Origin: Octopus vulgaris
Lineage: Eukaryota
Assembly (NCBI GenBank): GCA_951406725.2
Contig: OX597814.1
Location: forward strand, 216,318,001 to 216,382,000
Direction of reading: 5' to 3'
Length of the DNA: 64,000 nucleotides
The position numbers and the translations under genes are program-made. Positions 4,135 to 63,742 of the stretch are shown in pieces. The stretch's first letter is position 1. Every line of letters starts with the position of its first letter. The notes under the pieces were generated by a model, which had not been told where the DNA came from, did no database searches, and worked only from the letters and a program-made list of their open reading frames with translations.

Positions 4135-5673
4135 TTGTGCTGGACGATTGTAACATATACGATCATATACTGCAAAATGTGAAGTTAGATGTTCAACCAT
4201 TGAGGGAACCATCAGAAGAAAATACCATTTCAAGACAGCAAGTCCATGACTATTTACTACCTTCCAAGTTCCATCTGACTTTCTTAAAAAGACATAAAAT
4301 CATAGTTAATGACCAATTAAAGAAATGGGCTGAAGTAATATGGAAAGATTCCAAGTTTAATAAACTGAAATTAAGTTATTCTGAAGGAAATTTGAAGCAA
4401 ATTGAACAATGTTTGGAAGACTTATTAAATTCCATTACTGTTGAAATCATTGATGTTCCAACCAATATTTTTGAAGATGTTGCTAGAACATTGAAAAGTG
4501 AAGATGATGAGATGTATTTTTATTTTGATATCCAATATCATAAAGTTCATATTTTTGGATTTGATAAAAGTAATGTAATTAAAATGAAAAACAGACTTTT
4601 GGATAATCTTAGAACGATATATGAGGATGATTTAAGTATTCATGGAAGGCGTATTCTATCTGGTCTCAGATTTTTTGAGCAGGCAGAAAGACAAGCTGAA
4701 GATCTACAAGTCAGAATTCATGGTAACAAAGTTATTTTTGAAGGCCAGTATTCCGAATTAGCTACTTGTCTCAAGAATATGTATAAAATTCTTCAGTCAA
4801 TTGTTAAATCTGAATTGTGTTTGCCTTTAAATACTGGAATGATCATAAATAAAAAACCAGTGAAAGAATATCTTGATGAAGAACTGAGAAACAAGAAATG
4901 TATTGGTTCATGGGAAACGGGTGATGGTGATTCAGTATTACTTTATGCAAGTGATAAAACACATCTTTCACTTTTGGAAGAAATTATGAAAGAAACTTTT
5001 GTCGCCAATACCCTGGATTTTGTAGACAAAATTAAGGATACTCCAAATTATGGAAAGTGGATGACATTTGTTGAAAGTCTAAAAGAAGAGTTTCCAGATT
5101 CCCATTTTATTGGAGAAAATTCTATTGTTGCTGTTGATGCTGTAGTTAATGATATAAAAAGCAAAATTGATAACTTTAAGCAATCTTTAACTGATGAATC
5201 TTATATATCGATGACTCATGCACATTTCCTCTTTCTTAAAGAGTTCAAAGAACAAGAAATCAATGACTTTGGTGCAAAAAATAAAATTAAGAATGTGTGT
5301 CTCAAAGATAATAAGTTACACCTGGAAGGAACACGAGAGCAAATTAGGAAAAAGGAAATATTTATAGAAAATTTAAGAAAGGATACCAGATCACAAGAAG
5401 AAAACTTTGAAATGTTTAGATTTCAAAAAACCCAGAAAAGTGAAGAAGGAAAGAATTTCTTGAGTGAAATGCAGAAGGAATATGAGAGTATAATATCTTT
5501 AAATTCAGATTTAGAAAGTGAAACAGAAGAAATAGTTAAAGTTAATTATAAAAACTGTGAAATAGTGTTGAGGGAAGGTGACATCACGACTCTGGACACA
5601 GATGTTATTGTTAATGCTACAAATGGCAGACTGAATCTTATGGAAGGAGTTGCAGCAGTCATTGTGCAGAAAG
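4135..5673 (+). CDS. PARP14: PARP14-like mono-ADP-ribosyltransferase, large internal exon (KH-like region + start of Macro1); first exon found in window
   Basis: 1539-nt open exon inside ORF 3999-5678. Acceptor tttcataatttag|TT (phase 1), donor AAAG|gttagt. Ends IVLREGDITTLDTDVIVNATNGRLNLMEGVAAVIVQK (macrodomain start). Symbol is a family-level call. Confidence 0.85.
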
Positions 5674-9707: not shown

Positions 9708-9956
9708 GTGGGTTTGGAATTCAAGCTGAATCTAACAGAATTATGAAAGAAAGAAAGAGTGAACTGAAACCTGGAGAAGTAGTGTCAACTAAAGCTGGTA
9801 AACTCAAATGCAAGGCTATCATTCATGCTGTTGGACCCGTTTGGAATGATGGACAAACTGAGGAAATTTTTCACCTTTCAAGAGCTGTTCGAAATTGTTT
9901 GGCAGGTCTTGAAGAAATGTCTTATACATCAATTGCAATTCCTGCCATCAGTACAG
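9708..9956 (+). CDS. PARP14: PARP14-like exon: Macro1 core
   Basis: ttgcag|GT...ACAG|gtaag. GGFGIQAESNRIMKERKSELKPGEVVSTKAGKLKCKAIIHAVGPVW...YTSIAIPAISTG; phase 1-1. Confidence 0.92.
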
Positions 9957-21134: not shown

Positions 21135-21314
21135 GTACTTTTGGTATACCCATAGAAGAAGGAACTGAATGTATAGTAACAACTATAAAGATTTATCTTG
21201 ATGCTTACTCAAATTCTAAAATAAAACATATTTGTTTGATTGATGAACAGAAGGATGTAATCAGAGCTTTTAGGCATCATCTAGAAACGGTGTTTGGAAT
21301 CAGTAAAAGCAGAG
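21135..21314 (+). CDS. PARP14: PARP14-like exon: end of Macro1
   Basis: ttacag|GT...AGAG|gtagga. GTFGIPIEEGTECIVTTIKIYLDAYSNSKIKHICLIDEQKDVIRAFRHHLETVFGISKSR; completes the ISTG-TFG loop; phase 1-1. Confidence 0.9.
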
Positions 21315-24036: not shown

Positions 24037-24067
<31 letters not shown>

Positions 24068-24904
24068 CATACATATATATATATATCCTTGACTAAAATT
24101 TTAAAGACTACATGTTTATTATGGACTTCTGGTCACACATGTGCAATGATATATAGCAACTAGCCTGAACATTACCTGCACCATGCCTATACATGTGTGT
24201 TGCAACGAATTTCTTTCCTTAAAATTTACAGAAAAGCATATTTTTTGATGAAATTTTTTATGAATATGCTTCAGATGGTATAAATTCCAATTCTACTGGA
24301 ATTTGAGGTAAAAAATAAAAAAAGGTTTCAAAACAAATATCTGACACGTATCAGTATTTATGTCTGCAATTTTTATTTTCATATTAAATTATTTTATTAT
24401 CATAATATACACACTCTTAAAGGTACTTGTGGAAATTTTCATTTAAAAATAACCATTTTCCAAAAAGTTATGAGGAAGCAAATTTGACTTGTGTGAATTT
24501 TCTGAAACTCCTCTCTCCACTCCCTCAAAAATATTTTTTTCACACCAAATTCTCAACTTACTGGAATCTACACCATCTGAAGCCTGTTTTAATAAATGTT
24601 TTAAGCAAAAACGTTTCATAAGAGGTGGAAGATCACATTTTACTAACCAGTTTCACTGTTTTCAGACTTTGAAAGTTTCAAGTATGTTCTTCAATGTATT
24701 TTTAGTCCATTTGGTAGAAGAAATAGATGGAAATAACGTTATATAGCCTTGTTGCTATAAAAAGTTGGTGGGGAAATGACTACAAGTTAGCATGTATTCT
24801 CTTGCTAAATCATATTTTCAGAAAGGAATATCATTACTATTTATATGGAATAAAGTAGTTCTTTTAAGAGAGAGAGAGAAGAAAGTTTAATTGTTTATTT
24901 TCAG

Positions 24905-25041
24905 AAACCACATAATTCAACGCTTCCCTTCTTGGTCCACAACAGAAAGCAGCCCCTACGACACCCAGAACTAATGTGGCATCCGGAGAAAATGCTGGCA
25001 TCAAAATACAACTATTGATTGATTCAATTTCTAATGCATCT
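24905..25041 (+). CDS. PARP14: PARP14-like cassette 1 exon A (linker + Macro2a start); contains in-frame TAA at 24913-24915
   Basis: ttttcag|AA...TCT|gtgagt. (E)TT*FNASLLGPQQKAAPTTPRTNVASGENAGIKIQLLIDSISNAS; same length and phase as the paralog at 36058-36194. Confidence 0.75.
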
Positions 25042-25322
25042 GTGAGTAAATAGATTCATGTAACTTATTTATATTTAATTGTTATTTCATTTCCAAATAA
25101 GGAATCATTACAGTTAATTAAAACATTTTCTCAATCAAACTCAAACATTTTATTTCCTTCACATCTGATATCCTGAGTATATCTTTTGCTAACTTTAACA
25201 ACCTCAAACTTACTACAACCATTCTGTAGAGCCTTTCTTAACAACAATATCAACTGCAACAATGTATCTCTCTTCTCTCCATGGAATGTTCCTTAGTTGT
25301 TTACCATTAAATTCCTTTGTAG

Positions 25323-25550
25323 GTTGATGTCATCATTAACAGCACCAATGAACATCTCTGTCTTGACATTGGTGTTATCTCCAAATATATTCTCCTTGCT
25401 GCTGGTCCAGAGATACAAGTTGAATGTAACCAGAAATATCCTCAAGGTATTTCTACATTTGAAATAGCCATCACTAAAGGATATAACCTCAACTGTAAGA
25501 ATGTATTTCACCTGGTATTACCTCCCTGGGATGAAACTTCATCTGATTCA
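25323..25550 (+). CDS. PARP14: PARP14-like cassette 1 exon B (Macro2a core)
   Basis: tttgtag|GTT...TCA|gtaagt. VDVIINSTNEHLCLDIGVISKYILLAAGPEIQVECNQKYPQGISTFEIAITKGYNLNCKNVFHLVLPPWDETSSDS; not in the ORF track. Confidence 0.9.
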
Positions 25551-26367
25551 GTAAGTATCAATCATATTATATCGATTTATTGAAAGAGTTGTTGTACAAC
25601 CCTAGGTTATCATTGATCCAGCATCCCTGTGGCATGAACGGAATTGTCCATAAAACTATGCACAATCCACAGATGTGTTTTTCCAGTCATACAACACTTC
25701 CGTCTGCTTCAAGACAGTAGCATGTATTTTGATGTCCACTGATGTACAGTATGGGCTACAGTGTGACAGTCTGGTGTTGTGGTATTCTGTACAATTTCCA
25801 AAGCATGGATTCTGGTTGTTTGAAATTGATGTAGACTCTATTGTAGATATTCCCTGAACATTTTGACTCAACCATAGTCTCTTGTGTGCAGTGTAGAATC
25901 TTTTGTGCCTGTGGCGCCCTGCCTTGTGGGTGGTTTTGTTGCTTCTTGCAGTATGTTCTCACCCAGATTTCCCTCTTGTAAATAATAATTAATCTCTCCT
26001 CTTCCCTATTATTTTTTTTGTTAATTACAAAATTCCACCTGAATTACACTGTGCAACCACCAAATCTTGGAACATTTCTCTTTCCATTCACGGCATCCAT
26101 ATCTTCACTCAGACCAGACTTCCTGCTATCACATGATCTGTGTTGATCCTTCTGTCAAATGATGTGTTAATCCAATGACCACATGATCTGTTAATCCAAT
26201 AATCACTAGAAGTTGTTTAATACTATTCAAATCTGTAAAACATTTCTGTTTAGAACAACAAATTTTGTGTGGAATTTGTTAATCAAAGAATATATTAATT
26301 ACAACTTAACAATTCCTTCCTCTAATAAAATATTCATTATCAATTACTAAACAATTATTTTTTTTAG

Positions 26368-26595
26368 ATTCTGGCAAACTTGACTCAAATAATAACCATT
26401 TGTCTGAAAAATACTGAGGGAATGGGAGTGAAAAGTATTGCATTTCCTATATTAGGAGCTGGAACATTGAAGTACCCCATTGAAAATCTACCCAGAACTA
26501 TGTATGAAGCCGTGAAAAACTACTCAAATCTAAATCCAAGCCAGATCAAAGATGTTTACTTTACGGTTTATCCTCAAGACAGAGAAATAGCAAAG
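26368..26595 (+). CDS. PARP14: PARP14-like cassette 1 exon C (Macro2a C-terminal half)
   Basis: tttttag|ATT...AAG|gttggt. ILANLTQIITICLKNTEGMGVKSIAFPILGAGTLKYP...IKDVYFTVYPQDREIAK. Confidence 0.9.
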
Positions 26596-27409
26596 GTTGG
26601 TTGATGTATTTGTTGTTTGTTGTTTTATGTTGATATTCTTGGAATTTACCAAAAACCAATATTCCGCAATAAAGAAAAGAAAATAGAAATGACCCTCATA
26701 ATAATTTACTGCCCTTGTTCCATACTTTCATGGGTGCAACATTTTGACTGGCTCCAATGAGCCAGAAGGGTTTATTAAACCCCAGTGTCTGCTTTGGCAT
26801 GGTTTCTATGGCTGGATGCCATTCCTAATGCCAACCACTTCACAGCATGTCCTGGGTACCTTTCTTCATGCTACCTTTAAGGCTGTTCATTATATCTTGT
26901 GCTTTATCCTTTCATTATACCATTTCCCATCACCAAATTCTTGCTTCTGAAATATTCCATTGTAACATTTGAAGCTAAGAATGTTTTCCTTGTTGGTTGT
27001 TATTGGATTCAAAACCAACTCTACAAGAATTGGTAACACTGAAGGTCTTCTTTGCAGTTTGGCTGTTCTTATTTAACCCCGAGTCAGTTCTGATTTAGCA
27101 GATTTGAAGTCAGTGATGTCTGTCTTCCTTTCACTCTTTTCCTCCTCCTCTTCCAAGCTGCCACAATCAAGACACATTTCACAATTCCACACCAATAATC
27201 TGTGTCCGCTTCCTCCCCCTTTACTCTGCTTCTTGTTCTGTGTCTTTTCCAAGAACATCAATGTAACTGAGTGGAACTCAACCCCCTGTCGGAGTGTAGA
27301 TATCTCCAAAATATAAAATCTGATATGGTCAAGTGTTCAACAAAGTAACAGGGTCAGTAAACCCTACTCTGTGTTTGAGCAACAATAGCAGAGATGGGTG
27401 GAATATCAG

Positions 27410-29697
27410 CTTCATCATCATCACCATCATCATTGTTTAATGTCTCATTTCCATGCTGGCATGGTTGGAAGGTTCCACTGAGGACTGGCAAACCAGAAGT
27501 CTGCACCAGGCTCCAACCTGATCTGGCAAGGTTTCTGAAGCTGGATGCCCTTCCTAATACCAGCCACTCCGAGATTGTAGTGGATGCTTTTTACGTACCA
27601 CTGGCATGGGGGCCAGTCATGTGGCACTGGCAACAACCAAGCTCAAATGGTGCTTTTTACATGCCACCAGCATGGGAACAATCAGGCAACACTGGCAACA
27701 ACCTCACTCGAATGGTGCTTTTTACATGCCACCAGCACAGCTGCCAATCAGGCAGTATTGGCATCCTCTATAACAATGATTTCACTTGACTCAACAGGTC
27801 TCCTCAAGTGCAGTTTATTGGCCAATGATTGATGGGTACTCTTAAATGGGCTGGTTATGTTACACTGGCATAGGTCATGGTTATCGTCTCACTTGGCTTG
27901 CCAGGTCTTCTCAAGTACAGCATATCTCCAAAGGTTTCTGTTGCTTGTCATCACCTCTGTGAGGCCCAACATTTCATGGTCATGCTTCACCACCTCATCC
28001 CATGTCTTCCTGGGTCTACCTCTTCTACAAGTACCCTCCACTGCTAGGGTGTGACACTTTTTCACACAGCTATCCTCATCCATTTGCACCACATGACCAT
28101 ACCAGTGCAGTCGTCTCTCTTGCACACCACATCTGATGATTCTTATGTCCAACTTTTTCTCATGGTTCTTAAACTCTGTTGTGTATCCACACTGACATTA
28201 CACATCCAGTGGAGCATACTGGTTTCATTCCTTGTGACCTTATGCATGTCCTCAACTGTCACAGCCTATGTTTCACTGCCATGTAGCATGGCTGTTCTCA
28301 CACAAATGTGTCATACAGTCTACCTTTCACTTGGAGTGAGAGGCCCTTTGTTACCAGCAGAGGTAGGAGCTCTCTGCACTTTGCCTGGGGTATTCTCATT
28401 CAAGAAGTTCTGCTCTCAGTGCATCCACCCCCAATGCTGACTTGGTCACCTAGGTAACAGAAGCTATGAACTACTTCTAGTTTCTCCACCTGGCATGTGA
28501 TGGAAGCTGTTTCCTGCACATTTCCAGTGTTTATCGCCCCTCTGCATTTGGCACACACAAAAACTATCTTCCCAGTTAGCCTTCTTTGATATTGCTGCAC
28601 CTCTTGTATGTCCATAGCTTGCACTGGGTACATCTTATGGAATTTCTACCGATGCCTTTTCTACAGATCAAGCAGAACATCTACCTGAATGGATTTGTGA
28701 TTTGTCTGTCTTCCTACTTATTAAGACGTTAGTTTTTGCGAAATTCTCTCTAAGACCCTTTGATTCTAGACATTACTTCCACACCTGAAACTTCTTTAGT
28801 TCTGATAGTAACTCAGCTATAAGAGCAAGATCATCAGCATCAAGGATCTCCCAGGGGCATCCTATCTTGAATTCCTCTGTTATTGTCTGGAGGACTATGA
28901 TGAATAAAATGGAGTTAGGGACTTGGTCCTTGGTGGATCCCTACTCAGAATTCTTCACTATACTTGTTGACAACCCTCACCTTACTGACAGTATCCCTGC
29001 ACATGGCTTGTACAGCCTTCACTAACCATTCATCTATCCCCAGTTTCCACATTGACCACCAGATAAGTGATCAGGGGACCCTGTCAAAGGCTTTCTCCAT
29101 GTCAACGAAAGTCAGGTACAGAGGTTTATTTTTGGCTAGGTATTTCTCCAGCAGCAGTCTTACCAGAAATATAGCATCAGTGGTGCTTTTCCCTGGCACA
29201 AACCCAAACTGTATCTTGTCTAAACTAACTCTCTCCCTAATTAGTTGGGCTACAACCCTCTATGTGACTTTCATTACCTGATCCAACAACGTGATACCTC
29301 TCTAATTATTTCTATCTAAAGTGTCACCTTTATCTTTGTAGCAGTTGATTATTATGCTGCTACACCAGTCATCGGGTATGACTCCTTCATGTATCACTTG
29401 CTTGACTATATGGGTGACTAGGCTATAGCCGACACTGCCAGATGTTTTAAGCATCTCTGCAGTGTTTCCTGATGGGTCGGGGCTTTCCCTGTCTTCATAC
29501 CCTTAATTGCTTTATCTACCCAGTTACAGTAAATTTAGATAGTTGGTCTCTCTGTTGGGTCGACATTTGGCAGACTCTCATTCTCCCATTCATTCTCTTC
29601 ATTTGACAACCTTTCATAGTGGTATCTCCAAGTCTCTCTCTTTGCAGCATCATTAAATGCAATTGAGCCATCATCCATGCAGACACATTTCTTTTCC
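27410..29697 (-). mobile_element. RTE-clade LINE (PHD family), RT to 3' tail, degenerate
   Basis: Minus-strand ORFs CGVQERRLHWYGHVVQMDEDSCVKKC...GRPRKTWDEVVKHD; (CAT)n tail at ~27411. Confidence 0.85.
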
Positions 29698-30800
29698 ATA
29701 AATAATGTGATTTTTTCCATTGCATGAACTGAAAGTTGGAGGGGGATGGGAAAAAATACGACCTGCATCAACTTGCTATAAAAGCAGGTAGTAATTTTAC
29801 CTTTGAATTATTCTTAATTCAAATTTTGAAGAGTGTAGTTCAATTTTAACAGTCATTTTTTCAAAGCTACAATGGAAGTTACAAAGGAGCATATTTGCAT
29901 TTTTGTTTTATGAGTTCAATAAAGGCATTAAAGACAATGGAAAGTGTGAGGAATATTAATACAGTATATGAGGATCGAACAATAAGTATAAGCCAGTGTC
30001 AATGGTGGTTCCACAAATTCTGTGTTGGAAACTACAGCCTAGAAGACAACCCTCATTCTGGAAGATCTGTAGAGCTCTATGAGGATGTCCTGCAAAGCCT
30101 GGTGGAACAAAATCTCATCATACTGTTAAGGAACTAACAGAGAAGCTTGTATTTGGTCATTCAACCATTCATCGACACCTGCATGCCACCAGACAAAGTC
30201 AGCAAACAGCAAATGGTGTCAATGATTTCCTCACTAACTTTCTGAGTCTAATCATGCACAGAGAGTGAAGGTGTGCTCTTCTTTGCTGTCACATCTCATG
30301 AATGAATCTTTTTTGGACTGAATAGCGACTGGTGACAAGAAATGGGTTCTCTATAAAAATGTCAAGTACTGAAGTGTGTAGGGAAAGGAGAAAGACCGAT
30401 ACCCCGGGAGAAAGAAAGTCTTCATCCATATAAGGTGTTGTTATCAGTTTGGTGAGATATGAAAGGTTAAGTCCACTTTGAACTTTTAAACCCAAACCAA
30501 GCAATAACAAAGGAGATCTACAGTGAGCAGCTTGAGCAGTTTAAGTCAGCACTAGAAGAACAACGACCATCTTTGGTTTGAAGATGAAAGGTGTTCTTCC
30601 ATCAGGATAATGTTTGGCCACATACAGCAAGAATGACATTCCAAAGGCTGGAGCAGTTTGAATGGGAAACGATGCCCCACCCACCATATTCATCAGACAT
30701 TGCTCCATCTGATTATATCATTCATTCTGCAGTCTTCAAAAATGATTTGGATGTAAAAAATATGAATTCTACAGACGAGGTCAGAACAGCAATGAAAAAA
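29698..30800 (+). mobile_element. Tc1/mariner (mariner) transposase pseudogene
   Basis: WFHKFCVGNYSLEDNPHSGR (HTH region), FHQDNVWPHTA...HPPYSSDIAPSDY; frameshifts and stops. Confidence 0.85.
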
Positions 30801-31931
30801 CAGGGTTTGTGCATAGAAGCTGTGATACAACGAAAGTAAACTTTAGAAGACATTGTTTTAAACAGTATGAAAGCAATGCGTGAGAGATAATACATGTGTG
30901 TGTGTGTGTGTATATATATATAGGGAGAGAGAGAGAGAGAGAGGGGCAGAGAGAAAAATAATAGAGAGAGATTCATGGTAACAAATAGAGAGAAAGACAT
31001 TTGCAGTTGAGTTCTCGTTGCAAATTATATTTTCATATTATTATTTATGGATGACCATTCATTGGGATGCAGATTTTGAATATCAAATTCGTTTTTTCTT
31101 GAGGATACATCGTTTCAGGGACTTTCAGGGCTAACCACACATACAGAACCATATACACTCATATCTATATAATAGATGTACAAGATGTGTGTGTACAGAC
31201 TAATGTAAATGTCTTGTCTATATATATATATATATATATATAGAATATCAGTATATATATATTTTTATAGTAATGTAAACTATATTGTCTATGCATAGAT
31301 GGATGTAAGCAAGATGGGTGTATATAAACTGAGCGTCATATATACACTTTCTGTATACAATATGTGTTGGGGACAGGAAAAGATTGTTTGGCTAGACCAG
31401 TTCCTTTTCTTCTTTCTCCTTTTATCTATACCCAGTGTTGGGTACACATCTGCAGATATACTCTGTAGGACAGTATATATAGCATTGAAGTAAAGCACTG
31501 TTGACATACCAGTAATTCACTGGAATTTACTCAAAGCCAGTCTGTTTCAACAGAAATGTTCTTCTTTTGGTTTTAATCAGTTTTGAAAATAATGAGGAAT
31601 TAAGTAAAATCGGTTTGTCATTATTAAGCTGGTGTTTGGGCATAACATGGAATCTTGATACCAAATTCAATTCCATGAATAATTTTTTACAGTCACTTAA
31701 ACAAGCAAATTTCATTTCTTTTTATTCTGTAAGTAAAAATTCCTCCCCAAACTACAGAATATTCAAAAGCCTGTTCCTCATAGGAAGTTATTCTATGATA
31801 CAATAAATGGAAATATTAATTTAAAACAATATTTGTGATAGAAACAATGAGTTAAAACATTGCATTGTAATTAACAGAAATTAATTATTTTTTCATTGAG
31901 TGATAATAAATTATTTGCTTACTTTTAACAG

Positions 31932-31986
31932 AAATTTAAAGAATATTTCCAACAAATGTCAGCAGATGGTTCAGATGTATCATCAG
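31932..31986 (+). CDS. PARP14: PARP14-like cassette 1 exon D (55 nt)
   Basis: ttaacag|AAA...TCAG|gtaaat. KFKEYFQQMSADGSDVSS; phase 0-1; paralog at 43364-43418. Confidence 0.82.
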
Positions 31987-32097
31987 GTAAATTCGTTTGT
32001 TTTTTTTTTCTTCTTATATTAAATATCATTTAGGAAGAAACTAGTGACACTTTTTCTCATCATCATCATCAATTATTTTTATTGCCATTATTATTAT

Positions 32098-32520
32098 TGA
32101 ATGAGAGAGCAGCAAATGCCATCAAAGTAACAATGGGGTACAAATATACAAAGCCAGTATCCACATCATTTCTACCCATCTGTTAAGGGTACACCAGGCT
32201 CATGCATCACAACCATATGTGCACAACATGGTTATCTCTTATCAAGATAAACAGTGCATGGCCTATCAGGTGGGGCCCAGTTAGAATTTTCTTCAGGTCA
32301 AGTAGTCCATCACACTCAAAAGGTCCCTGAATAAAGGTTATTAAAGGATGTTGAATGAAACACCCTTGTCTCCAGGGGTGAATTATTCAAACCCCAAAGA
32401 ATCCCTCTCACCACATAGCTATGATGCACCCACACTACTTCTGCTCATGATCAGAGAAGCACATATCATCAGCCACTAAGGGACATGCTCAACTGGTTAT
32501 GGTCAAACAACTGACAAGAA
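32098..32520. mobile_element. Interspersed SINE-like repeat, truncated
   Basis: Matches 53838-54076 + 55157-55470 (GAGAGAGCA..TGCCATCAAAGT..GATAAGGGTACAC..CAGCCACTAAGGGAC); breaks off abruptly at ~32520. Confidence 0.7.
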
Positions 32521-32639
32521 AAACAGTGCTATGAATGTACCAACACACGAGTTCAAGACATGACAATCCTCACACACTTCTCCTGAGGTATTCCAGAAAG
32601 AACTTCATGAAACTATTACAAGAACGCTTCCAACAGATT

Positions 32640-33733
32640 TCAGTAACCATTAGAAGAATAAGAAAACCAACTATAATAGGGACTCCGTTAGTTCCTAGCA
32701 ATCTCTGAGGTAGGAATTTTTATAATCCAAAATATTAGACCATGAATAATTCAATTATTTCTAACAGTTATTATAGTCCACTCTGCATTGTTGTACCATT
32801 CCAGATATGTTACATTGCTTATATATATGTATGTTTCTTTAAGAAAGTCAGGGCTGAATTGCTTGGAAGGTACTGTTAAATAGTCACTGAATTATTATGA
32901 TGATTATTCAGGCAAATATTGATATAAGTTCTTCAGATGGTTCCCAGATAATGGTTGAACATTTAACGATCACACGTGTGCCATTGCATTGTTGCATTCT
33001 ACAAACATCCAGCACAACTGAATTATGAAAAAGTAAACAGATAAAATCATTTCGTTGGTGAGGGATTAGGGGTGAGTTGGGGAGTTCAGTGGGTAAGGAC
33101 AGAAAAGTATTTGAAGACAAAGTAATGTCATTATTATAATACATTAGCAAACAGAAAAATATAATCAAAATTTAACTGATACTAAGTAAAGACTATCTCT
33201 ATTAATTATAACAAATACAAGAAACATCACTGGAATGTTAGTTTCAAATTTTGGCACAAGGCCAGCAATTTCAGGAGAGTGGCTAAGTTAATTACATCAA
33301 CCACAGTGCTCAACTGGTACTTATTTTATTGACCATAAACATCACTGGAATTTTGGTTTCAAATTTTGGCACAAGGCCAGCAATTTCAGGAGAATGGCTA
33401 AGTCAATTACATCAACCCCAGTGCTCAACTGGTACTTATTTTATTGACCATAAACGTTGCTGGAATTTTGGTTTCAAATTTTTGCACAAGGCCAGCAATT
33501 TCAGGAGAGTGGCTAAGTCAACTACATTAACCCCGGTGCTCAACTGGTACTTATTTTATTGACCATAAACGTTGCTGGAATTTTGGTTTCAAATTTTGGC
33601 ACAAGGCCAGCAATTTCAGGAGAGTGGCTAAGTCAATTATATCCACCCCAGTGCTTAACTGGTACTTATTTTATTGACCATAAACATCACTGGAATTTTG
33701 GTTTCAAATTTTGGCACAAGGCCAGTAATTTCA
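32640..33733 (-). pseudogene. Inverted paralogous fragment of ~3475-4490 (115-bp array + intron + start of the large PARP14-like exon)
   Basis: Minus ORF 32908-33168 LSLPTELPNSPLIPHQRNDFICLLFHNSVVLD matches ORF 3999. Array units at 33316, 33431, 33546, 33661 (115-bp period). The exon part is indel-ridden. Confidence 0.85.
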
Positions 33734-33917
33734 CTTGAATTTGTGGAACCAGTTGCTCCTGTATGATAAAACTTGATATTTATTTAACTGTCAATCAGTG
33801 AGATATTAGACTAAATCAATTGAAGATCAGGCAACAGACTCAGTAGTTGTCAATTTGTATTCTATCATTTATAAATTCAACACAAGAAAGTCTCTTTTTC
33901 AAGTATGGACTGTATTA

Positions 33918-33980
<63 letters not shown>

Positions 33981-34231
33981 AGTTTGACACATGCTTTGAT
34001 TTTTGGAAAATACAACATTGAACAAAGGATATTCCAACATTTGAATGAAACCATTTCACTTTGATTTGTGGAACCAATTGCTCCTGTATGATAAAACTTA
34101 ATATCTATTTAATCAGTGAGATATTAGACTTAATCAGTTGAAGATCAGACAACAGACTCAGTAGTTGTCCGTTTGTATTCTGTCATTTATAACCTCAACA
34201 CAGGAGAGTCTCTCTTTTTCAAATATGGACT
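33731..34231 (+). repeat. Direct repeat of ~180 bp (33731-33911 / 34056-34231) separated by (CA)n
   Basis: TTGTGGAACCA.TTGCTCCTGTATGATAAAACTT...AACAGACTCAGTAGTTGTC...TATGGACT occurs twice. Confidence 0.85.
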
Positions 34232-34307
34232 TTATGAAATTTTACTCATCATACATTGAAGGACAAATCTTTCAATTTACAATTTAATATAGTAGAACAT
34301 TTAATAT

Positions 34308-34370
<63 letters not shown>

Positions 34371-34554
34371 TACCTGTTATATACATTATATTATTTTTGT
34401 AATTTACTTAATTTTTACTTTTTAATTGTCATTTTAATTTTAACTTTTCTATGGTATGCAATTTTCTAGATGGTGTAACTTAATTGTTCATTTTGAATCG
34501 ATAAAAGGTGTATTTTTCCTAATATTTTATGTATAAGCATGTATATATATATAT

Positions 34555-36008
34555 TAGACCAAAGTTATAGTAAGCAGAAAGGCGAACTCAGCACACACAC
34601 CCTCGGGCAGGTGACCCTGCTCGATCTGTAGGAAAGGTGTAGGTAGAAACTCCATAAGATGCACCCAATGTAAGCTATGGATGCATAAGAGGTGCAGCAA
34701 CATTAAAGGGAAATTAACTGATAAGATAGCTTTCATATGCAGCAGATGCACAGGGACAATAGACACCACAGACACACAGAAAACAGATTCCATCTCACTC
34801 CAGGGGAAGAAACTAGAAGTAGTTGACAGTTTCCGCTACCTGGGTGACCAAGTTAGTAGTGGAGGTGGATGCTCAGAGAGTATCACCACTAGAATACGAA
34901 TAGCCTGGGCAAAGTTCAGAAAGCTCCTACCCCTACTGGCGACAAAGGGCCTCTACACAGAATGTCACAGGGATGGCCCAAAGGTAGATTGTATGATGCA
35001 TGTGGGCGAACTGCCATGCTTCACGGTAGTGAAACATGGGCTGTGACTGCAGAGGACATGCGTATACTTGAAAGAAATGAAGCTAGCATGATCCGCTGGT
35101 TGTGTAATGTCAGTGTGCACGCACGACAGAGTGTAAGCACCTTGAGAGAAATGCTGGACATAAGAAGCATCAGATGTGGTGTGCAAGAGCGACGCTTGCG
35201 ATGGTATGGTCATGTACTGCGGATGGATGAGGAGAGATGTGTGAAGAAGTGCCACTCCAAAACAGTTGACGGTATCAGGGGGAGAGGTAGACCCAGGAAG
35301 ACATGAGATGAGGTAGTCAAGCATGACCTCAGAGCGTTGGGCCTCACTGAGGCAATGGCGAAGGACAGAGATCTCTGGAGATATGCTGTGACTGCAAAGA
35401 CCCGGGCTGCTTCATGCACCAGTTTCGCATAGCCCCTGCCCATACAAAGTACCCTGGATCCCAGAACGTCCCACTGTGCTTGAGGAGACCTGTTGAGTCA
35501 AGTACATGAAGATGAACATCGAAATAAATATCAATGGAAATAGTAGTTGTGATACCTGTGCCGGTGACACATAAAAAGCACCATCCGAACGTGGCCGTAG
35601 CCAGCACCGACTCGACTGGCTTCTGTGCCGGTGGCACATAAAAAGTACCATCCAAACGTGGCCGATGCCAGCACCGCCCCGACTGGCTCTTGTGCCGGTG
35701 GCACATAAAAAGCACTATCCGAACGTGGCCGTTGCCAGCGCCACCTTGGCTGGCTTCCGTGCCGGTGGCACGTTGAAAGCTCCAACCGATTATGACCGAT
35801 GCCGGACCCCCCCAGGCACCTGTGCAGGTGGCACGTAAAAAGCACCCACTACACTCGCGGAGTGGTTGGCGTTAGGAAGGGCATCCAGCTGTAGAAACTC
35901 TGCCAGATTAGACTGGAGCCTGGTGCAGCCCCTGGCTTCCCAGACCCTGGTCGAACTGTCCAACCCGTGCTAGCGCGGAAAACGGACGTTAAACGATGAT
36001 GATGATGA
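34555..36008 (+). mobile_element. RTE-clade LINE (PHD family), 5'-truncated, ending ~50 bp upstream of cassette 2 exon A
   Basis: Closely similar to 13700-15045; HKRCSNIKGKLTDK...FRYLGDQ; (GAT)n tail. Confidence 0.9.
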
Positions 36009-36057
36009 TATATATACACACACACACACATGTTAATTAATACTTGTTTCTTTTCAG

Positions 36058-36194
36058 GAACCTCATCATCAAACCCATCCCCTCTTCATCCACAACAGAA
36101 AGCAGCTTCTGTGATACCCAAAACTAATGTGGCCCTGACAAAGAATCCTGGCATCAAAATAAACCTAATGATTGATTCAATTTCTAATGCATCT
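36058..36194 (+). CDS. PARP14: PARP14-like cassette 2 exon A (linker + Macro2b start), open
   Basis: ttttcag|GA...TCT|gtgagt. (G)TSSSNPSPLHPQQKAASVIPKTNVALTKNPGIKINLMIDSISNAS. Confidence 0.88.
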
Positions 36195-36472
36195 GTGAGT
36201 AAATAGATTCATGTAACTTATTTATTTAATTATTATTTCATTTCCAAATGAGGAATCATTACAGTTAATTAAAACATTTTCTCAATCTAACTCAAACATT
36301 TTATTTCCTTCACATCTGATATCTTGAGAAATCTTTTGCTAACTTTAACAACCTCAAACTTACTACAACCATTCTGTAGAGCCTTTCTTAACAACAATAT
36401 CAACTGCAACAATGTATCTCTCTTCTCTCCACGGAATGTTCCTTAGTTGTTTACCATTAAATTCTTTTGTAG

Positions 36473-36700
36473 GTTGATGTCATCATTAACAGCACCAATA
36501 AACACCTCCAGCTTAACATTGGTGCTATCTCCAAATATATTCTCCTTGCTGCTGGTCCAGAGATACAAGTTGAATGTAACCAGAAATATCCTCAAGGTAT
36601 TTCTACATTTGAAATAGTCATTACTAAAGGATATAACCTCAACTGTAAGAATGTATTTCATCTGGTATTACCTCCCTGGGATGAAAATTCATCTGATTCA
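36473..36700 (+). CDS. PARP14: PARP14-like cassette 2 exon B (Macro2b core)
   Basis: tttgtag|GTT...TCA|gtaagt. VDVIINSTNKHLQLNIGAISKYILLAAGPEIQVEC...CKNVFHLVLPPWDENSSDS. Confidence 0.9.
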
Positions 36701-37641
36701 GTAAGTATCAATCATATTATATCGATTTATTGAAAGAGTTGTTGTACAACCCTAGATTATCATTGATCCAGCATCCCTGTGGCATGAACGGAATTGTCCA
36801 TAAAACTATGCACAATCCACAGATGTGTTTTTCCAGTCATACAACACTTCCGTCTGCTTCAAGAGAGTAGCATGTACTTTGGTGTCCACTGATGTACAGT
36901 ATGGGCTACAGTGTGACAGTCTGGACTTGTAGCATTCCTTATAGTTTCCAGATCATGAATTCTCGGAATGGCCACTGGAAAGATAGGCAACTGCCACCAT
37001 TGAGGAAAACTGACCTTTTCCTCCACATGGTGATGGACGATAGGCAACTGATTACGAATCAAATAGCCAATGTTAGGAGCATATTCCATGAGACAGTTTT
37101 GTCCTCACTAACCATTCTAATTGTTCCTAATGCTTGCTAACATCCAGTTCGAAATTGATTGATATACGTTGTATTGTAGATATTCCTTGAACAAACTATT
37201 ACATTAAAATACAGTCTCTTGTGCGCAGTGTAAAGGCTGTTGTATCCCAAACACTGCATCCCAGGCGGTTCTCTGTGTTGTCCTGCCTTGTGGGCTGTTT
37301 TGCTGCATTTTACAATATGTTCTCACTCAGATTTCCCTCTTGTAAAGAATCATTAATCTCTCTTATTCCCTGTTGTTGTTTCCATTAATTACAAGAGCCT
37401 ACTTCAATTACACTGTGTATCCACCTAATCTTACAACATTTCTCTTTCCATTCATGGCATCCATATGTTCATTTAGACAGGCTTCCTTCTATCTCATGAT
37501 CTATGTTGATCCTTCTGTCACATTATCTATGTTAATCCAATGATCACATCATCTATTAATCTAGTAATCACTTGATGTTGTTTAAATGTTATTCTAATCT
37601 GTAAATCATAGACCATTTCAGTTTGCAACAACTAAATATGT

Positions 37642-40453
37642 CTTGCAAACAACTTGCACATGCAAGTGCTACCAGTCAAAAGCTCCGTATACCGGAAGCC
37701 AGCAAGTGTATGGGGTCATCAGGAGAGAATGCATGCCGTTTCGGGGCCTACTTGTCGACGGCATCAATGCGCACCAGCCCCCACCTCACTGATATGAGGC
37801 CCCACTTGCTAGATCAGCTGGTTATGAAGTTAAACTCAATATCCTTCTAGCCATTGCTCATCGTCTCTTTTTAACCAAATCCAGTGGCTAGCCTTCTCCA
37901 CTGTAGATTGGATATCAGTCATGGTGGCATTGACTTTACGATGAGTTAGGCCTAGCGATAACAACAATTGTCTCATGCTGTGTCCAACAAACCCTCTACA
38001 ACTGACTTTGATTGGAAAATGTTCTGCTTTCCAGCCTGCGTCTTCACATTCCTCGAGGATGTTTACATAACGGTTCAATTTTTGAGCCCGAGCGGCGTCC
38101 ATATTATCTTCATGAGGAACTGTTAGCTCGACTATATTTACAACTTTCTTTCATACCACATCAAAATATCTGGTTTTTTCGTAACTGGGATGGGAAAGAA
38201 AAACTGGCACCCAGGTAAATCTGCAGTTACCTCCCACTAGCCGTTCCACTTTCCATTTCTCTCAGGAAGTTTCTTGATCTTCTTGAAACAGATCCACTGA
38301 CCTGGTCGCACTTAGGTAATGAAATCTCTAGATGGTACTTTCAACGGTTTTTTCTCAGTGTTGTTGAGATGAATTTGGTTCTTTATAGCATTTAAGATAA
38401 CCTTAAGGACCAAGTTGTGCCTCCATGTATACCTGTTCAATGCTAATGAACAGTTGGAAAGAATATGTTTTAGTGTACTGACCTTTCCACATTTGCAGAT
38501 GTCATTCTCTGAGACGTTCCATCTTACTAGATTCGTAGTTGATGGCAAAACATCATAAGATGAATGAAACAGAAAACTCAGCTGAGATGTTGTCCACTTC
38601 CACATCTCATCCCAACTTACCTTCCTCTCAACAACATGTTCTTCCCATCTCGTCATTTGACCTTGATGAAAACATCGGATCAAATGAAGCTCTCTTCTCT
38701 CTGCTTCTCTTGTTTTGACGCTGTTGCTAACAACAGTTCTGCGTTCACTCCGCATCATGCTTGCAAACAGTCTGAACTGATCTGCGCCAAAACCAAATCC
38801 TTTCCGATGGTTCTGCGTTGCTTCCACCATATCTCTGGGTATAAGAGAAGAAAAGATGTTGTCAGTTTCTGCCTCTGCTTTCCACTTCCTGGCTGTTTTC
38901 ACCTCTGGTGGGTTACGCCTGATTTCCATATCCTTCAATCCTCTCAGCATTATGACCGTCCGTATCTTCCCCAGCTTATATATTTCGACTATTGATGCTA
39001 TTGGTAGCTGCAACGAACCTCTTTTAAGATAAAGAGCTGAACTGTTCAACATACAAGGTAGGCCTAGCCACTTTCTAATGAACACATTACATTTTTGTTC
39101 AATGATTTCAACTCGTGACAATGCTACCTCGTATATTAAAAGTGGCCATGCAAGTTGCGGGTACAAGCCGAACTGCAAGCACCAAATTTTATATTTACCT
39201 GGTAACTTCGAATTATCAATCGCTGATAACCCAGCCTCGGCCTGTTTCATAATTTCAATCCCATGACTTCTGTCTGACAATGTTCCAGCGTATACTCGTC
39301 CCAAGCTCTTGACGGGCTCTTCCTTGACTGTTGGAATGCTTCCTTCAGATATTCAATACTTAAATTCTTTCTCCTCTCCCTTAACATATGTCAGACTACG
39401 TGACTTTTTTGCTCTAAATCGCATCGTTGACCACCTTACAAGTTCGTCTAATCTCAAGAGGGCATTCTGCATGATTTGTTTATCTGTAGCTAGAAGTGTC
39501 ACGTCATCCATGAAGGCTTTCTTAGGCGATTGTACATGGGCGATTTGTTCCGAAAAATCTACACCTTTCAAAATCAACTCCATGACTAAGATAAACCACG
39601 TGACAGATATTGTACAGCCAGCAGCAATGCCAACCTCCAATCGGTGCCAATCTGTTGTAAAATTTCCAGTTGTAAACCTCATTTCGAAACTGTCATAGTA
39701 CATCCTCATTATTTTGATCACTTTGTTAGGAATGTGGAAGTGGTCCATGGCTGTTATTAGTAATTCATGTGGCACTGAACCATACCACGTTCAGACTTTT
39801 CTTGTTTTGTTTGGCGTCCTGGATCGCTTTCCAAATCGAAAAACAGTGTTCAACACATCCAGGGATCCCGGCCTTTTGAACAGATTCATCAACATATCCG
39901 TTACTCTGTAAATATGTCACTGTTCTCCTCGACAGAATTCCCATAAAGATCTTGCCTTCCACATTCAATAAGGATATCGGCCTAAACTGTTTTATGGTCT
40001 TTGCATTGGCCTCTTTCAGCAGGTATATACCTTCTGCCTTACACCAATCCTCTACTATAGTCTCCTCGCGCCACAGTTGTCGGAGTAGGACAAAGAGCTT
40101 CTTTCTCAGAAGATTGCAGTACTTGTGAGACTTTATATGAGAAGCCATCACCTCCTGGGGCACTCTTTGCTCTAGTCTTTCTTACAAAGTCATTCACCTC
40201 TCTGTCCCTGATGTCCCCAATCTGGAATTCGATATCAGGTCCTGAGAGATGATTTAGCCCATGTAGAGGTGGCAGCGGCTGGTTACGGTGCGGATCACTG
40301 TAGGTTTCCTTAATATGAGCATCCAATTCTTCTTTAGTGCACGATAAATTACCACTCTTCGGTTCAGTGAACAGCTTCTTAGTAAAACCGTACGGGTCCT
40401 TCAGAAACTGCCCCCGAGTCCTTTTACTCTCCTTTCGAGGCTCATATCGGCGG
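37642..40453 (-). mobile_element. HERO-like non-LTR retrotransposon (RT + zinc knuckle + restriction-like endonuclease), 5'-truncated, 7-bp TSD AATATGT
   Basis: FRPISLLNVEGKIF, GIAAGCTISV, AFMDDVT, CKCGKVSTLKHILSNC...RYTWRHN, KLNRY..CEDAGWKAEHFPIKVSCRGF. AATATGT at 37635-37641 and 40454-40460; absent from the paralogous intron at ~26260. Confidence 0.88.
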
Positions 40454-40581
40454 AATATGTGGGAAATTTCTTAATCAAAGAATATATTTATTACAACTTA
40501 ATGATTTCTCCCTGTAAGAAGAATTTGGAAATAGTTCCATAAAATGTTCATTATCAATTACTAAACAATTATTTTTTTTAG

Positions 40582-40809
40582 ATTTTGGCAAACATGACTC
40601 AAATAATAACGACTTGTCTGGAAACTGCTGAGAGAATGGGAGCAAAAAGCCTTGTATTTCCTATATTAGGAGCTGGAACATTGAAGTACCCCATTGAAAA
40701 TCTACCCAGAACAATGTCTGAAGCAGTGAAAAACTACTCAAACCAAAATTCAAGCCAGATCAAAGATGTTTACTTCATGGTTTATCCTCAAGACACAGAA
40801 ATAGTAAAG
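40582..40809 (+). CDS. PARP14: PARP14-like cassette 2 exon C
   Basis: tttttag|ATT...AAG|gttggt. ILANMTQIITTCLETAERMGAKSLVFPILGAGTLKYP...VYPQDTEIVK. Confidence 0.9.
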
Positions 40810-40929
40810 GTTGGTTGATTTATTTGTTGTTTGATGTTGATATTCTTGGAATTTACCAAAAACCAATATTCCACAATAAAGAAAAGAAATAGAACTGATC
40901 ATTTACTGCCCTTGTTCCAAATATAATTC

Positions 40930-41900
40930 TCTCCTACAACATCACGGTTTTTCCTCACATACAAAACACCTCAAGCCTCAAGTCCTCATGCAATAGAAAG
41001 AACTGACAAACTCTCTACTTCCTGCTGAGTATACCTGTCTCCTTGTTTCCCTGCTCATATGTTTCTCTATATTACCATCACACTTCCAGGCCTCTTTCTT
41101 CACTCTAATGGCCCTGTCTACTACACTGTTCCAACACCATGCTACCATAGGTCTAATTCAGATTTGACACCACCCACAAAACTTGGTCTGCAGATCTCAG
41201 TAAATTGTCTCATGGGAACTTCCCTGTATCTTCTGTGTTACACGTCTGTAACTCCCCTCTTTTTCATTAAATGCTTCACTGAAAATGCATAGACAACTGA
41301 TATGGCATGCCTGATGGGAAATGCTTGCCGAATCCTTCCTCCCAGATGCTGCATGTCATTCTCCTTCTCCATCTTACACCCTACTCCACCCTCCTGAACT
41401 TCCTTACAATTGTTAAGTGTCTGGATCCTTCATTTCCAGTTGTCTCGTAAGAACTTCTAGCTGTCCTCTATTTTACATGTCTCTATCTCTTCCTGGTTCA
41501 TGTTAAAAGTTTCAATTAGGACATCTCTAAATATCCGATCATTCAAAGTTGTTGATGATCTGCCAAAGAATATCATAAAAGCAATCCTTCTGTTCATTTG
41601 GCAGACCAATTTGAATGGCATAGGCAGAAATAACTGTTGCCATACAACTCTACTCTGAGCTCAAGTACCCAAACACACACTCTGACTATCTCAGCTACAT
41701 TATCCACCCATTTCCCAGCTAGAAGTATGACTACTCCACCTACCCCATCGCTGATGCTTTCCCAGAGAATTTTATAGATATGTATTTTGCCTGTGAGGTA
41801 TATGGACGAAGCTCCTCTCCACCTTACTTCTTGAAGGCAGCACACATCGAAACACCTCTGTTAGAACATCTCAACAGACCTAGCTTTCAATGTGTCTACA
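40930..41900 (-). mobile_element. Rearranged RTE-clade LINE fragments (endonuclease start and linker)
   Basis: CCLQEVRWRGASS...GVGGVVILLAGKWVDNV on - strand; interrupted by one arm of an inverted repeat. Confidence 0.65.
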
Positions 41901-42041
41901 TTGACAAAGCCAATTGTAGGGAACTTCAGGAGGTTGGGGCAGGGGGTAAGAGGGAGAAAGAGAATGACATTCAGCATCTGGGAGGAAGGATTCAGCAAAT
42001 GTTTTCCACCAGGCATGCCATATCAATTGTCTATGCATTTT
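41281..42041. repeat. ~130-bp inverted repeat arms (41281-41412 / 41911-42041)
   Basis: AAAATGCATAGACAACTGATATGGCATGCCTG...CCTTCCTCCCAGATGCTG is the reverse complement of CAGCATCTGGGAGGAAGG...CAGGCATGCCATATCAATTGTCTATGCATTTT. Confidence 0.85.
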
Positions 42042-43363
42042 ATCTGCCATTATTCATTCATCTTATACTTGCTGCATCTGCCTCAAGTGAGGGCTATAAA
42101 AGCATTGTTAATACAATAATGAACATATGAAAATAACTAATTAGTTAATCAATTAACGGACTGATAGGTTCTGCATTTTGGTGCAAAGTATAGAAAGTAC
42201 GACATTTGTGTTGCAGTGATATGGATGAGAGGCAACTATGAAGGGAAGGAAGAGGGGAGGGCAGAAGAAGGATTGTTGGGAGGGGTTCCAGTACAGAAGA
42301 AATGTAGGTAATGAGAGCATGAGCGGATGGGCACATCATGAGTAAGGAAAAGATGAAATGATGGGATTTGCACATTTCCACAGCTGATGAAGTAATGGAG
42401 ATAGAGGAGAGGTGAGATATATTTACAATAACAGAGATATATATTTACATTGACGTTAATAATTAAATGAGGAAATGAGGCATTAGGAGAGAAACTTTGA
42501 TGATGGTGGATTAAATTAAATTAAATTAAAGATGGGTTTGTTTCAACATGATACAAACACAAGCAGGAGATGAATAGAATAATGCAAAAATTAAAGCAAA
42601 AAAACAAATCATAGTAGTTTATCTCTCATATCTTTTCATTGTGCATAGAAGTGTGTAATAGTCAGAGTTGTTATTTGAAATGTCTTGTGTTGATATACAG
42701 CATCTGTATATACAGACTAATGTAAACATCTATAGACTATATTGGTACATATAGACTAATGTAAGTACGTTGTTTGTATACAACTATATTCTGTATGTAT
42801 AGTAAGCAGCTTGTATATAAACTGAGCGTCATATATACACTTTCTATATACAATATGTGTTGGGGACAGGAAAAGATTGTTTGGCTGGACCAGTTCCTTT
42901 TCTTCTTTCTCCAGTGTTGGGTACACATCTGCAGATATACTCTGTAGGACAGTATATATAGCATTGAAGTAAAGCACTGTTGACATACCAGTAATTCACT
43001 GTTTTTTACTCAAAGCCAGTCTGTTTCAACAGAAATGTTCTTCTTTTGGTTTTAATCAGTTTTGAAAATAATGAAGACTTAAGCTGATGCTTGGACATAA
43101 CATGGAGTCTCGAAAGCAATTACAATTCCATGAATAATATTTTCTTATTCTTTAAGTAACAATTCCTCACCAAACTACAGAATATTCCAAACCTTGTCCA
43201 TCGTAGGAGTTTATTTTATAATACAGTGAATAGAAATGTAAATTTAAAACAACATTTATGATAGAAGCAATGAATAAAAGCATTGCATTGAAATTAACAG
43301 AAATTAATTATGAAATTATGTTTTTGATTGAGTGATGATAAATTATTTGTTTACTTCTAACAG

Positions 43364-43418
43364 AAATTTGATGAATATTTCCAAGGAAACACAACAGGTA
43401 GTTCAGCTGCATCATCAG
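43364..43418 (+). CDS. PARP14: PARP14-like cassette 2 exon D (55 nt)
   Basis: ctaacag|AAA...TCAG|gtaaat. KFDEYFQGNTTGSSAASS; phase 0-1. Confidence 0.85.
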
Positions 43419-48636: not shown

Positions 48637-48818
48637 ATGATGAAGATGAAGAAATAGAAGATAATGTCTTTGCTGGTCAAAAAGATGTTGGTGTCACATT
48701 GAAATTCTTAGCTAAATACCAAAATCTTGACAATGCTATAGAAACTGTTAAAAAGGAGTACAATTCTCTATTAACAACTGAGAAAATACCATTTGATGTG
48801 GACTTGACAGAACCTCGA
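48637..48818 (+). CDS. PARP14: PARP14-like exon after the macrodomains (acidic linker, KH-like)
   Basis: tttcag|AT...CGA|gtaagt. DDEDEEIEDNVFAGQKDVGVTLKFLAKYQNLDNAIETVKKEYNSLLTTEKIPFDVDLTEPR; phase 1-0 fits both neighbours. Confidence 0.8.
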
Positions 48819-59459: not shown

Positions 59460-59829
59460 AAGCTGAGTTTAAGGAATATTAGTAGAATACATAAAATCCA
59501 GATTTCTATCAGTGAAACAATTACAATTTATGGCAGACATTCTCATGTAAAAGATGCTAAAATCTCTGTCCAATCATTATTAATGGAATTCAAAGAAACT
59601 GATGAGGAAACTCTTCTTAAAACAATGGTACAATGGTCTTACTTTGATGAAAATAATCCAGAAAACGTAAGAATGTTTAGTGACAAAGAAAATGCCAAGC
59701 TTGAGAAAGCATACTCACTGCAAAAGAAATTCCTTGATTGGAACAACAGAAGATACGATTTTCAGAAAATGACTTTTCAACTCGGAGGGAGCAAATTTAA
59801 AATGAAAAGAAAACAGAACCTAAAGGACG
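59460..59829 (+). CDS. PARP14: PARP14-like exon: KH-like end + WWE domain
   Basis: ttttcag|AAG...GACG|gtacgt. ITIYGRHSHVKDAK...VQWSYFDENN..FSDKENAKLEKAY..RRYDFQKM. Confidence 0.9.
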
Positions 59830-60238: not shown

Positions 60239-60372
60239 AATTGATCCCTAATACATGGTCAACAATGGAAAACGAGGAATTAATTAAAATTGTTCCAGTC
60301 AAAAATGGACCAGAATATGATGACATCAAGGCCACTTTCCATCAGGATTTGCCTTCGTATCGTATAATCAAA
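60239..60372 (+). CDS. PARP14: PARP14-like exon: start of PARP catalytic domain
   Basis: ctctag|AA...AAA|gtttgt. ELIPNTWSTMENEELIKIVPVKNGPEYDDIKATFHQDLPSYRIIK. Confidence 0.88.
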
Positions 60373-61089: not shown

Positions 61090-61267
61090 ATTGAGAGAAT
61101 TCAAAATAAAACATTATACCATGGATACCAAGCATTGAAAAGAAAGTTTGAGGTAGAAAATCCAAACATTACAAATGAAGTTGATGGCCTTTGGCATGGT
61201 ACTGCTGAAAGATCTGTTGAGGGAATAAATAAATCAGGATTCAACCGTAGCTATTGTGGTAAAAATG
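61090..61267 (+). CDS. PARP14: PARP14-like exon: catalytic domain with HGT motif
   Basis: ctacag|ATT...AATG|gtaagt. IERIQNKTLY...LWHGTAERSVEGINKSGFNRSYCGKN. Confidence 0.95.
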
Positions 61268-63473: not shown

Positions 63474-63742
63474 CCACAGCATATGGTGAAGGTGTTTATT
63501 TTGCCAGTGACATCCATTATTCTGCAAATGATACCTATTCTACTCCTGACTGTCACGGAATAAAGAGAATATACAAATGCAGTGTTCTTGTGGGAAGAGT
63601 GATGCTAGGACACCATGGACTAAAAGTTTTACATGGTTCTTACAATTCTGCTGTTGATAATATTCAAAGACCCAATATTTATGTTACTTTTCATGACTCT
63701 CAGGCATATCCTAATTATTTGATTACATTCTCTAATCATTGA
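63474..63742 (+). CDS. PARP14: PARP14-like terminal coding exon (catalytic domain, stop TGA)
   Basis: cttcttag|CC. ATAYGEGVYFASDIHYSANDTYSTPD...VLVGR...YNSAVDNIQRPNIYVTFHDSQAYPNYLITFSNH*; not in the ORF track. Confidence 0.95.

Follow-up and report, generated by a model that had tools for sequence, protein, structure and literature searches.

Two Macro2 cassettes in a PARP14-like gene of an expanded Octopus vulgaris family

Exon organization of the gene

The window analyzed here, i.e. the whole stretch of 64,000 nucleotides (nt), covers C1:216,318,001-216,382,000 of the Octopus vulgaris genome, C1 being the contig that carries it, and includes the 3' part of a PARP14-like gene, hereafter W. 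Within W, a set of four exons of 137, 228, 228 and 55 nt encoding a Macro2 domain recurs as a second cassette, as a first-pass annotation of the sequence had proposed, with AG/GT ends on all eight exons (positions are those of the window):

24905..25041, + strand, exon A1, 137 nt, linker plus the first strand of the copy-1 Macro2
25323..25550, + strand, exon B1, 228 nt, half of the copy-1 Macro2 with loop 1
26368..26595, + strand, exon C1 (of cassette 1), 228 nt, half of the copy-1 Macro2 with loop 2
31932..31986, + strand, exon D1, 55 nt, final helix plus linker
36058..36194, + strand, exon A2, 137 nt
36473..36700, + strand, exon B2, 228 nt
40582..40809, + strand, exon C2, 228 nt
43364..43418, + strand, exon D2, 55 nt

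The unit is 648 nt long and phase 1-1 as claimed, the computed phases being 1-0-0-0-1 with the same exon lengths in both cassettes. These are 88.6% identical, with 74 differences over 648 nt (28, 11, 23 and 12 in exons A, B, C and D), and their introns are still alignable at 77-93% identity: 24888-25813 with 36041-36963 at 93%, 31175-32012 with 42692-43444 at 77%, and, also against cassette 2, 25909-26268 at 81% and 26266-26722 at 84%. In the linker exon D (31932-31986 vs 43364-43418), all 12 differing sites change an amino acid (p 0.03, uncorrected).

The other exons of W present in the window are the following, where ART stands for the ADP-ribosyltransferase domain:

4135..5673, + strand, exon E0, 1539 nt, homologue of the PARP14 KH stretch plus start of Macro1; third copy of this module in W, open, with AG/GT ends
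9708..9956, + strand, exon E1, 249 nt, Macro1 core
21135..21314, + strand, exon E2, 180 nt, Macro1 end; closes a 1968-nt module in phase 1
48637..48818, + strand, acidic linker exon directly after cassette 2, with no Macro3 between
59460..59829, + strand, exon at the KH8/WWE position, assigned by position; no Pfam match
60239..60372, + strand, ART exon 1
61090..61267, + strand, ART exon 2
63474..63742, + strand, ART exon 3, containing the natural stop; best PDB match the PARP14 catalytic domain (E 3e-19)

Mapping of 664 kb placed the start of W ~80 kb upstream of the window, where two RRM-coding exons (C1:216.239 and 216.244 Mb) provide the N-terminal RRM expected of PARP14; the very first exon of W was not found. 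Exons E0, E1 and E2 form a second phase 1-1 module (1539+249+180 = 1968 nt, KH-region plus Macro1) that is present in three copies in W, whose layout is RRM-[KH-region+Macro1]x3-[Macro2]x2-linker-ART. The earlier count of a three-macro protein is therefore not supported, since W has 3+2 macrodomains and not 1+2. By BLAST, the whole W model matches a marsupial PARP14 at 29%. E0 aligns with the region between RRM3 and Macro1 of mollusc proteins (hhalign probability 99.8, E 2e-28) and weakly with the vertebrate pre-Macro1 region (probability 4.7, E 0.009), and has no Pfam match; the vertebrate counterpart of this region, between RRM3 and Macro1, holds KH domains. With a PARP domain and at least two macrodomains, W is a macroPARP, though it has Macro1, Macro2 and Macro2 in place of the tandem Macro1, Macro2 and Macro3 of a canonical PARP14.

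Concerning the ART domain, alignment of the last exon to the PARP14 ART places an I opposite L, as in mono-ARTs without the catalytic Glu, and exon 2 contains what we take to be the His motif. The ART of W is thus predicted to be a mono-ADP-ribosyltransferase.

Macrodomain identity and apparent absence of Macro3

The assignment of both cassettes to Macro2 is well supported: they score 179 and 187 bits with the Macro2 profile vs 132/137 with Macro1 and 107/113 with Macro3, the profiles having been derived from other animals (87 proteins with three macrodomains). The best single-domain PDB match is human PARP14 macro2 (3q71) at E 2e-29, the other two giving 2.5e-12 and 8e-12. A macrodomain phylogeny, proposed earlier as a check and run as a quick tree, unites the Macro2 domains of Octopus and Argonauta in a single clade (SH-like approximate likelihood-ratio test, SH-aLRT, 99), but vertebrate and coral Macro2 did not group with mollusc Macro2 with support, so that the Macro2 identity is drawn from the profiles and PDB matches.

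All 116 Octopus macrodomains class by profile as either Macro1 (27) or Macro2 (89), and no Macro3 exon was found over the genome with either Pfam Macro (76 matches) or a scallop Macro3 query (74 matches). These matches correspond to exons of the family plus six other loci, none of which is best as Macro3. Macrodomain exons outside the PARP14-like family include L072 (C14:57.56 Mb), L071 and L076. Because the three-macro form of PARP14 is ancestral, more than 700 million years old and present in molluscs, according to the accessible part of PMC10221186, octopods would have lost Macro3.

Macro2 copies have no loop-2 aromatic, and the loop-1 Gly aligned to that of human macro2 (G1044, as we take its number to be) is kept in 80/80 matched domains; both features predict non-catalytic ADP-ribose readers. 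The third residue after the loop-2 GxG is K, R or N in 56/56 domains vs G in 66/85 reference Macro2, and is K in lemur Macro3. The missing GDI motif was considered as a mark of lost binding and rejected, human macro2 also being without it.

For Macro1, the hydrolase residues given in the part of PMC10221186 that we could consult are a loop-1 Asn and Gly and a loop-2 hydrophobic plus aromatic pair. The Macro1 of the window has these residues, with N, the last G and T-F kept, and Macro1 copies that keep them are predicted erasers; the reader/eraser distinction follows PMC10499325 and bioRxiv 10.64898/2026.08.12.744356, as far as their accessible text goes. In loop 1 at 5620-5673, L and E replace the usual H and first G, as they do in upstream copy 2 of W and in one downstream block, a possible natural weakening of the hydrolase. 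The first upstream Macro1 copy of W has C in place of the loop-2 aromatic.

An inverted twin gene and gene conversion around exon B

We found that W has an inverted twin, gene X, ~490 kb away and 93-98% identical over ~155 kb, in which each block occurs twice and the frame stays open over 2115 codons from E0 to the stop. Exons A, C and D pair the cassettes of the two genes by position (W1-X1 and W2-X2; exon C 99.1 / 98.2%), and this cassette-by-cassette match indicates that the pair arose before W and X separated, i.e. that it predates the duplication of W.

Exon B departs from this pattern, with 95.2% identity in W1-W2 vs 92.1% in W1-X1 and 90.4% in W2-X2. The departure is confined to one feature:

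25180..25718, + strand, gene-conversion tract around exon B, common to both cassettes (span of informative sites)

Inside it, eight informative sites support within-gene grouping, one positional and two crossed; outside it, none is within-gene vs 84 positional (42/42 before 25012, then 13 after the tract, 18 in exon C and 11 in exon D). The contrast of 8:1 with 0:84 gives p 9e-11, for tract ends picked after seeing the data. Exon B was exchanged between the cassettes by gene conversion after the W/X duplication.

The family in the Octopus vulgaris genome

Genome searches returned 51 exon-B, 19 Macro1-exon and 18 ART-last-exon matches, the last at 17 loci; all family counts derive from match positions and are lower bounds. 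Three exon-B matches lie on contig C29, and the 48 on C1 were grouped by position, three of them without a nearby ART. The ART-ending loci have one Macro2 cassette (one locus), two (ten loci), three (three loci), four (two loci) or seven (one locus), so that 16/17 have 2-7; annotated Octopus proteins have 1-5 Macro2 repeats. The KH-Macro1 block is also repeated, in W (3), X (2), a locus at C1:5.38-5.42 Mb (2) and downstream of W (3). At C1:5.38-5.42 Mb the E0 and E1 frames of the block are open, and one E2 was incompletely extracted.

The first-pass annotation had seen in the pair a lineage-specific route to a three-macro PARP. What stands of this is a tandem, phase-symmetric Macro2 duplication in one PARP14-like gene, with octopod-specific sequences and a Macro2 in the place of Macro3. 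A particular event that made a third macrodomain is not supported, two cassettes being the commonest state of the family (10/17 loci, range 1-7) and the pair predating the duplication of W; the pair in the window is an ordinary member of the family pattern.

Several members show peculiarities of their own. A + strand locus at C1:216,473,896-216,608,168 (L077-L090) has RRM exons and three KH-Macro1 blocks; genome searches found no Macro2 or ART exon near it, only parts of the locus having been fetched, and it is possibly an eraser-only gene or a fragment. Gene Y (C1:216,005,823-216,106,207) has three Macro2 cassettes, the D exons of the first two of which were not found, and the frame breaks without them. 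The seven-copy locus (C1:206.65-206.72 Mb) contains five dead extra copies of exon A between its cassettes, and its last A exon is 138 nt long and frameshifted; 6/7 of its copies show an alteration of loop 2 that is absent from W and X. An extra tandem pair of exon A lies at 8.70 Mb (C1:8,704,286-8,704,742).

Integrity and splicing of W

In the assembly, W carries one disabling lesion within the cassettes:

24913..24915, + strand, in-frame TAA in exon A1; cassette 1 closed in the assembly

Base 24914 is C in 7/7 contigs from four other runs. It is also C in the 11 nearest paralogous copies, from which most of the seven contigs could come. One DNA contig (run X1, depth 5), however, has four differences to W vs 6-13 to the 11 paralogs and retains a W-private T at 24924. 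Because this contig is closest to W and keeps the W-private base, a stop-free allele of W probably exists, on the evidence of this one contig of depth 5, and the stop is probably private to the assembled haplotype or an assembly error. Two upstream E0 copies of W have +1 indels in runs of A, a common consensus error. For W itself, a broken allele, insufficient polishing of the sequence and a young pseudogene are all possible readings.

Concerning splicing, the Octopus sinensis RefSeq model XP_036355203.1 (P0025), 98% identical to cassette 2, starts in D1, runs into A2 and is open over cassette 2, though it ends early in the linker exon. A contig of run X15 (a run whose RNA label is a guess) joins the end of E2 to an A exon; its assignment as a W transcript was dropped, the E2 end being identical in 6/7 further copies checked, and together with another contig joining A to B it speaks for splicing at the family level only. 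Contigs over 21050-26700 were swamped by interspersed repeats and gave no informative splice joint. In O. sinensis, four comparisons of RefSeq isoforms in three genes differ by 210, 225, 216 and 225 aa (amino acids), i.e. by one unit each, and a fifth by 149 aa.

Interpretation and alternatives

We consider it probable that the window contains two Macro2 domains in one PARP14-like gene of an expanded Octopus family, built from two frame-preserving blocks that were likely multiplied by unequal crossing-over and partly homogenized by gene conversion. Both the KH-region plus Macro1 block (1968 nt) and the Macro2 block (648 nt) start and end in intron phase 1; unequal crossing-over would account for the changes in their copy number. 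Macro3 would have been lost in octopods and its place taken by extra copies of Macro2. Additional readers may bind multiply modified targets with higher avidity, and changes in exon B might shift target preference or allow evasion of antagonists, after the model set out in the accessible text of PMC4038475. The driver would probably be host-pathogen conflict, and an immune role of the family is suggested by analogy with vertebrate macro-PARPs.

A number of observations weigh against this interpretation. W carries three disabling lesions in the assembly (one stop and two +1 indels). The D1-A2 joint and the joint from E2 to the next E0 are supported only by gene models (P0025 and P0021), and the models deposited by the submitter for W and X include just part of the cassettes. 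The per-locus counts are lower bounds, with Macro1 exons not found for 8/17 loci, and the repeated KH-Macro1 block occurs in none of 12 annotated O. sinensis protein matches. The absence of Macro3 is drawn from one genome and from proteins collected with Macro1 and Macro2 queries, and the unrelated macro exon L072 scores 90.8 / 75.1 / 81.3 on the profiles. Lastly, the signal of selection is weak: the ratio of nonsynonymous to synonymous changes is 1.00 between W1 and W2 overall (dN/dS), and 1.73 among 18 B exons (pN/pS; codon-bootstrap range 0.97-3.49), and the W1-X1 comparison of exon B gives p 0.053. In the pN/pS set, 6/23 A and 2/18 C exons were left out for length; the exon C ratio (1.0) was not used, being inflated by compensating indels in unaligned copies.

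An assembly mis-join, collapsed haplotypes or a fusion of two tandem paralogs, raised by the first-pass annotation as another way to read the pair, is very improbable. The region is rich in repeats, the frameshifts suggest imperfect polishing, and X might represent the second haplotype, misplaced as a duplicate, though in that case both haplotypes would still carry two cassettes. Against it, there is no N in 664 kb, the cassettes are 11% divergent and have different insertions, neither an ART nor an RRM exon lies between them, and the model of the sister species O. sinensis spans D1-A2. Above all, the inverted twin has the same layout with an open frame. That W is a decaying duplicate, with intact X doing the work and the pair as inherited baggage, is more plausible than a mis-join and still unlikely. 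The TAA and the two E0 indels point that way, as do several extra changes in A1 and B1, the Macro1 loop 1 without the usual H and one G in 2/3 copies, and a dN/dS near 1. However, the seven contigs all read C at 24914, that of run X1 being best read as a stop-free allele, both indels are of the error-prone kind described above, and O. sinensis P0025 is open over the homologue of cassette 2 in spite of its early end.

Two further alternatives concern the age and the use of the second Macro2. It may be old, dating to the octopod ancestor and possibly having overwritten Macro3 in place, and look young through conversion and turnover. We hold this to be a serious possibility, though not the favored one: two cassettes are the modal state, Argonauta has a near-identical tandem pair as well as a Macro2-ART protein without Macro3, and conversion is demonstrated at W, but the copies of Argonauta and those of Octopus cluster by lineage, and the W1 and W2 introns still align, with a dS of ~0.12, which a recent duplication fits equally well. 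Somewhat less plausibly, the cassettes could be optional or alternative units, any four consecutive exons being skippable in frame to give shorter proteins or hybrid domains and to bypass the A1 stop. The phase arithmetic allows it, and the four one-unit O. sinensis isoform comparisons have breakpoints at varied places in the unit. Such model isoforms can, however, come from short reads mis-mapped among near-identical repeats, and no skipping joint was present among the read contigs listed, which could hardly have shown one. A more far-reaching proposal, which we regard as speculative and less probable than any of these except the mis-join, is that the macro-PARPs of Octopus form a combinatorial system of intracellular recognition. 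Its 17 or more genes would have eraser and reader blocks in variable numbers, an exon B diversified by conversion and selection, hybrid readers produced by four-exon skipping, and copy number and stop alleles varying between individuals.

Under the preferred reading of two multiplied, frame-preserving blocks, both Macro2 and the KH-Macro1 eraser block appear to have become repeats of variable number in octopods, throughout a large family. Octopods would thereby allow a natural test of whether the several readers of PARP14 serve avidity or specificity, and of whether erasers and readers are kept in a tuned ratio.

Comparison with known systems

Judging from the accessible parts of PMC10221186 and PMC13224862, the octopus genes resemble metazoan PARP14 in the order RRM, KH-region, Macro1, Macro2 and ART, in a Macro1 with the listed hydrolase residues and in a Macro2 without the loop-2 aromatic; moreover, the paralogs cluster on one chromosome, as reported for the lancelet (PMC13224862). 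They differ from the metazoan arrangement RRM-KH-Macro1-Macro2-Macro3-KH-WWE-ART in that no Macro3 was found, and in having 1-7 Macro2 and up to three KH-Macro1 blocks per locus at 17 or more loci. PARP9 and PARP15, described in the available text of PMC10221186 and PMC4038475 as partial PARP14 duplicates, likewise show macrodomain numbers altered by duplication or loss, with gene birth and death; their domains were lost by partial gene duplication, whereas octopus genes multiply domains internally through exon-block repeats.

The O. sinensis PARP14-like RefSeq proteins (XP_036355203.1, XP_036364520.1, XP_036364784.1 and XP_029633854.1) belong to the same family and have 1-5 annotated Macro2 repeats; their names are automatic, and the repeated KH-Macro1 block is in none of those retrieved. 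Among other PARP14-like proteins, taken as unnamed representatives, 64 have the macrodomains in 1-2-3 order and 60 have another order or are fragments; other molluscs mostly retain Macro1-2-3. Tandem macrodomains of the same type also occur in Argonauta, Haliotis asinina, Glandiceps, Patiria, Babylonia, Littorina and Branchiostoma, many of which keep Macro3, and their presence in abalone, acorn worm, sea star, snails and lancelet indicates that the gain of repeats is recurrent in invertebrates.

Added here are the apparent loss of Macro3, a count of the family, a second block that is repeated and the mapping of the conversion tract. The octopus family was undescribed in the literature searched, a search that excluded supplements and subscription papers, and the supplements of PMC10221186 may list Octopus proteins. 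A PARP14-like protein is more abundant in the skin mucus of aquarium-kept O. vulgaris, according to the accessible part of PMC11431876.

Other features of the window

The intron between the cassettes contains, at 32929-33675, an inverted 752-bp copy (89.6%) of 3474-4220, which takes in a 115-bp tandem array together with the 5' end of exon E0. An insertion resembling a retrotransposon, its ends similar and its reverse transcriptase and integrase frames broken, was recognized by eye at ~48990-53660, and further fragments of long interspersed nuclear elements (LINE) lie at 12.3-14.9, 34.6-35.8 and 37.6-40.4 kb.

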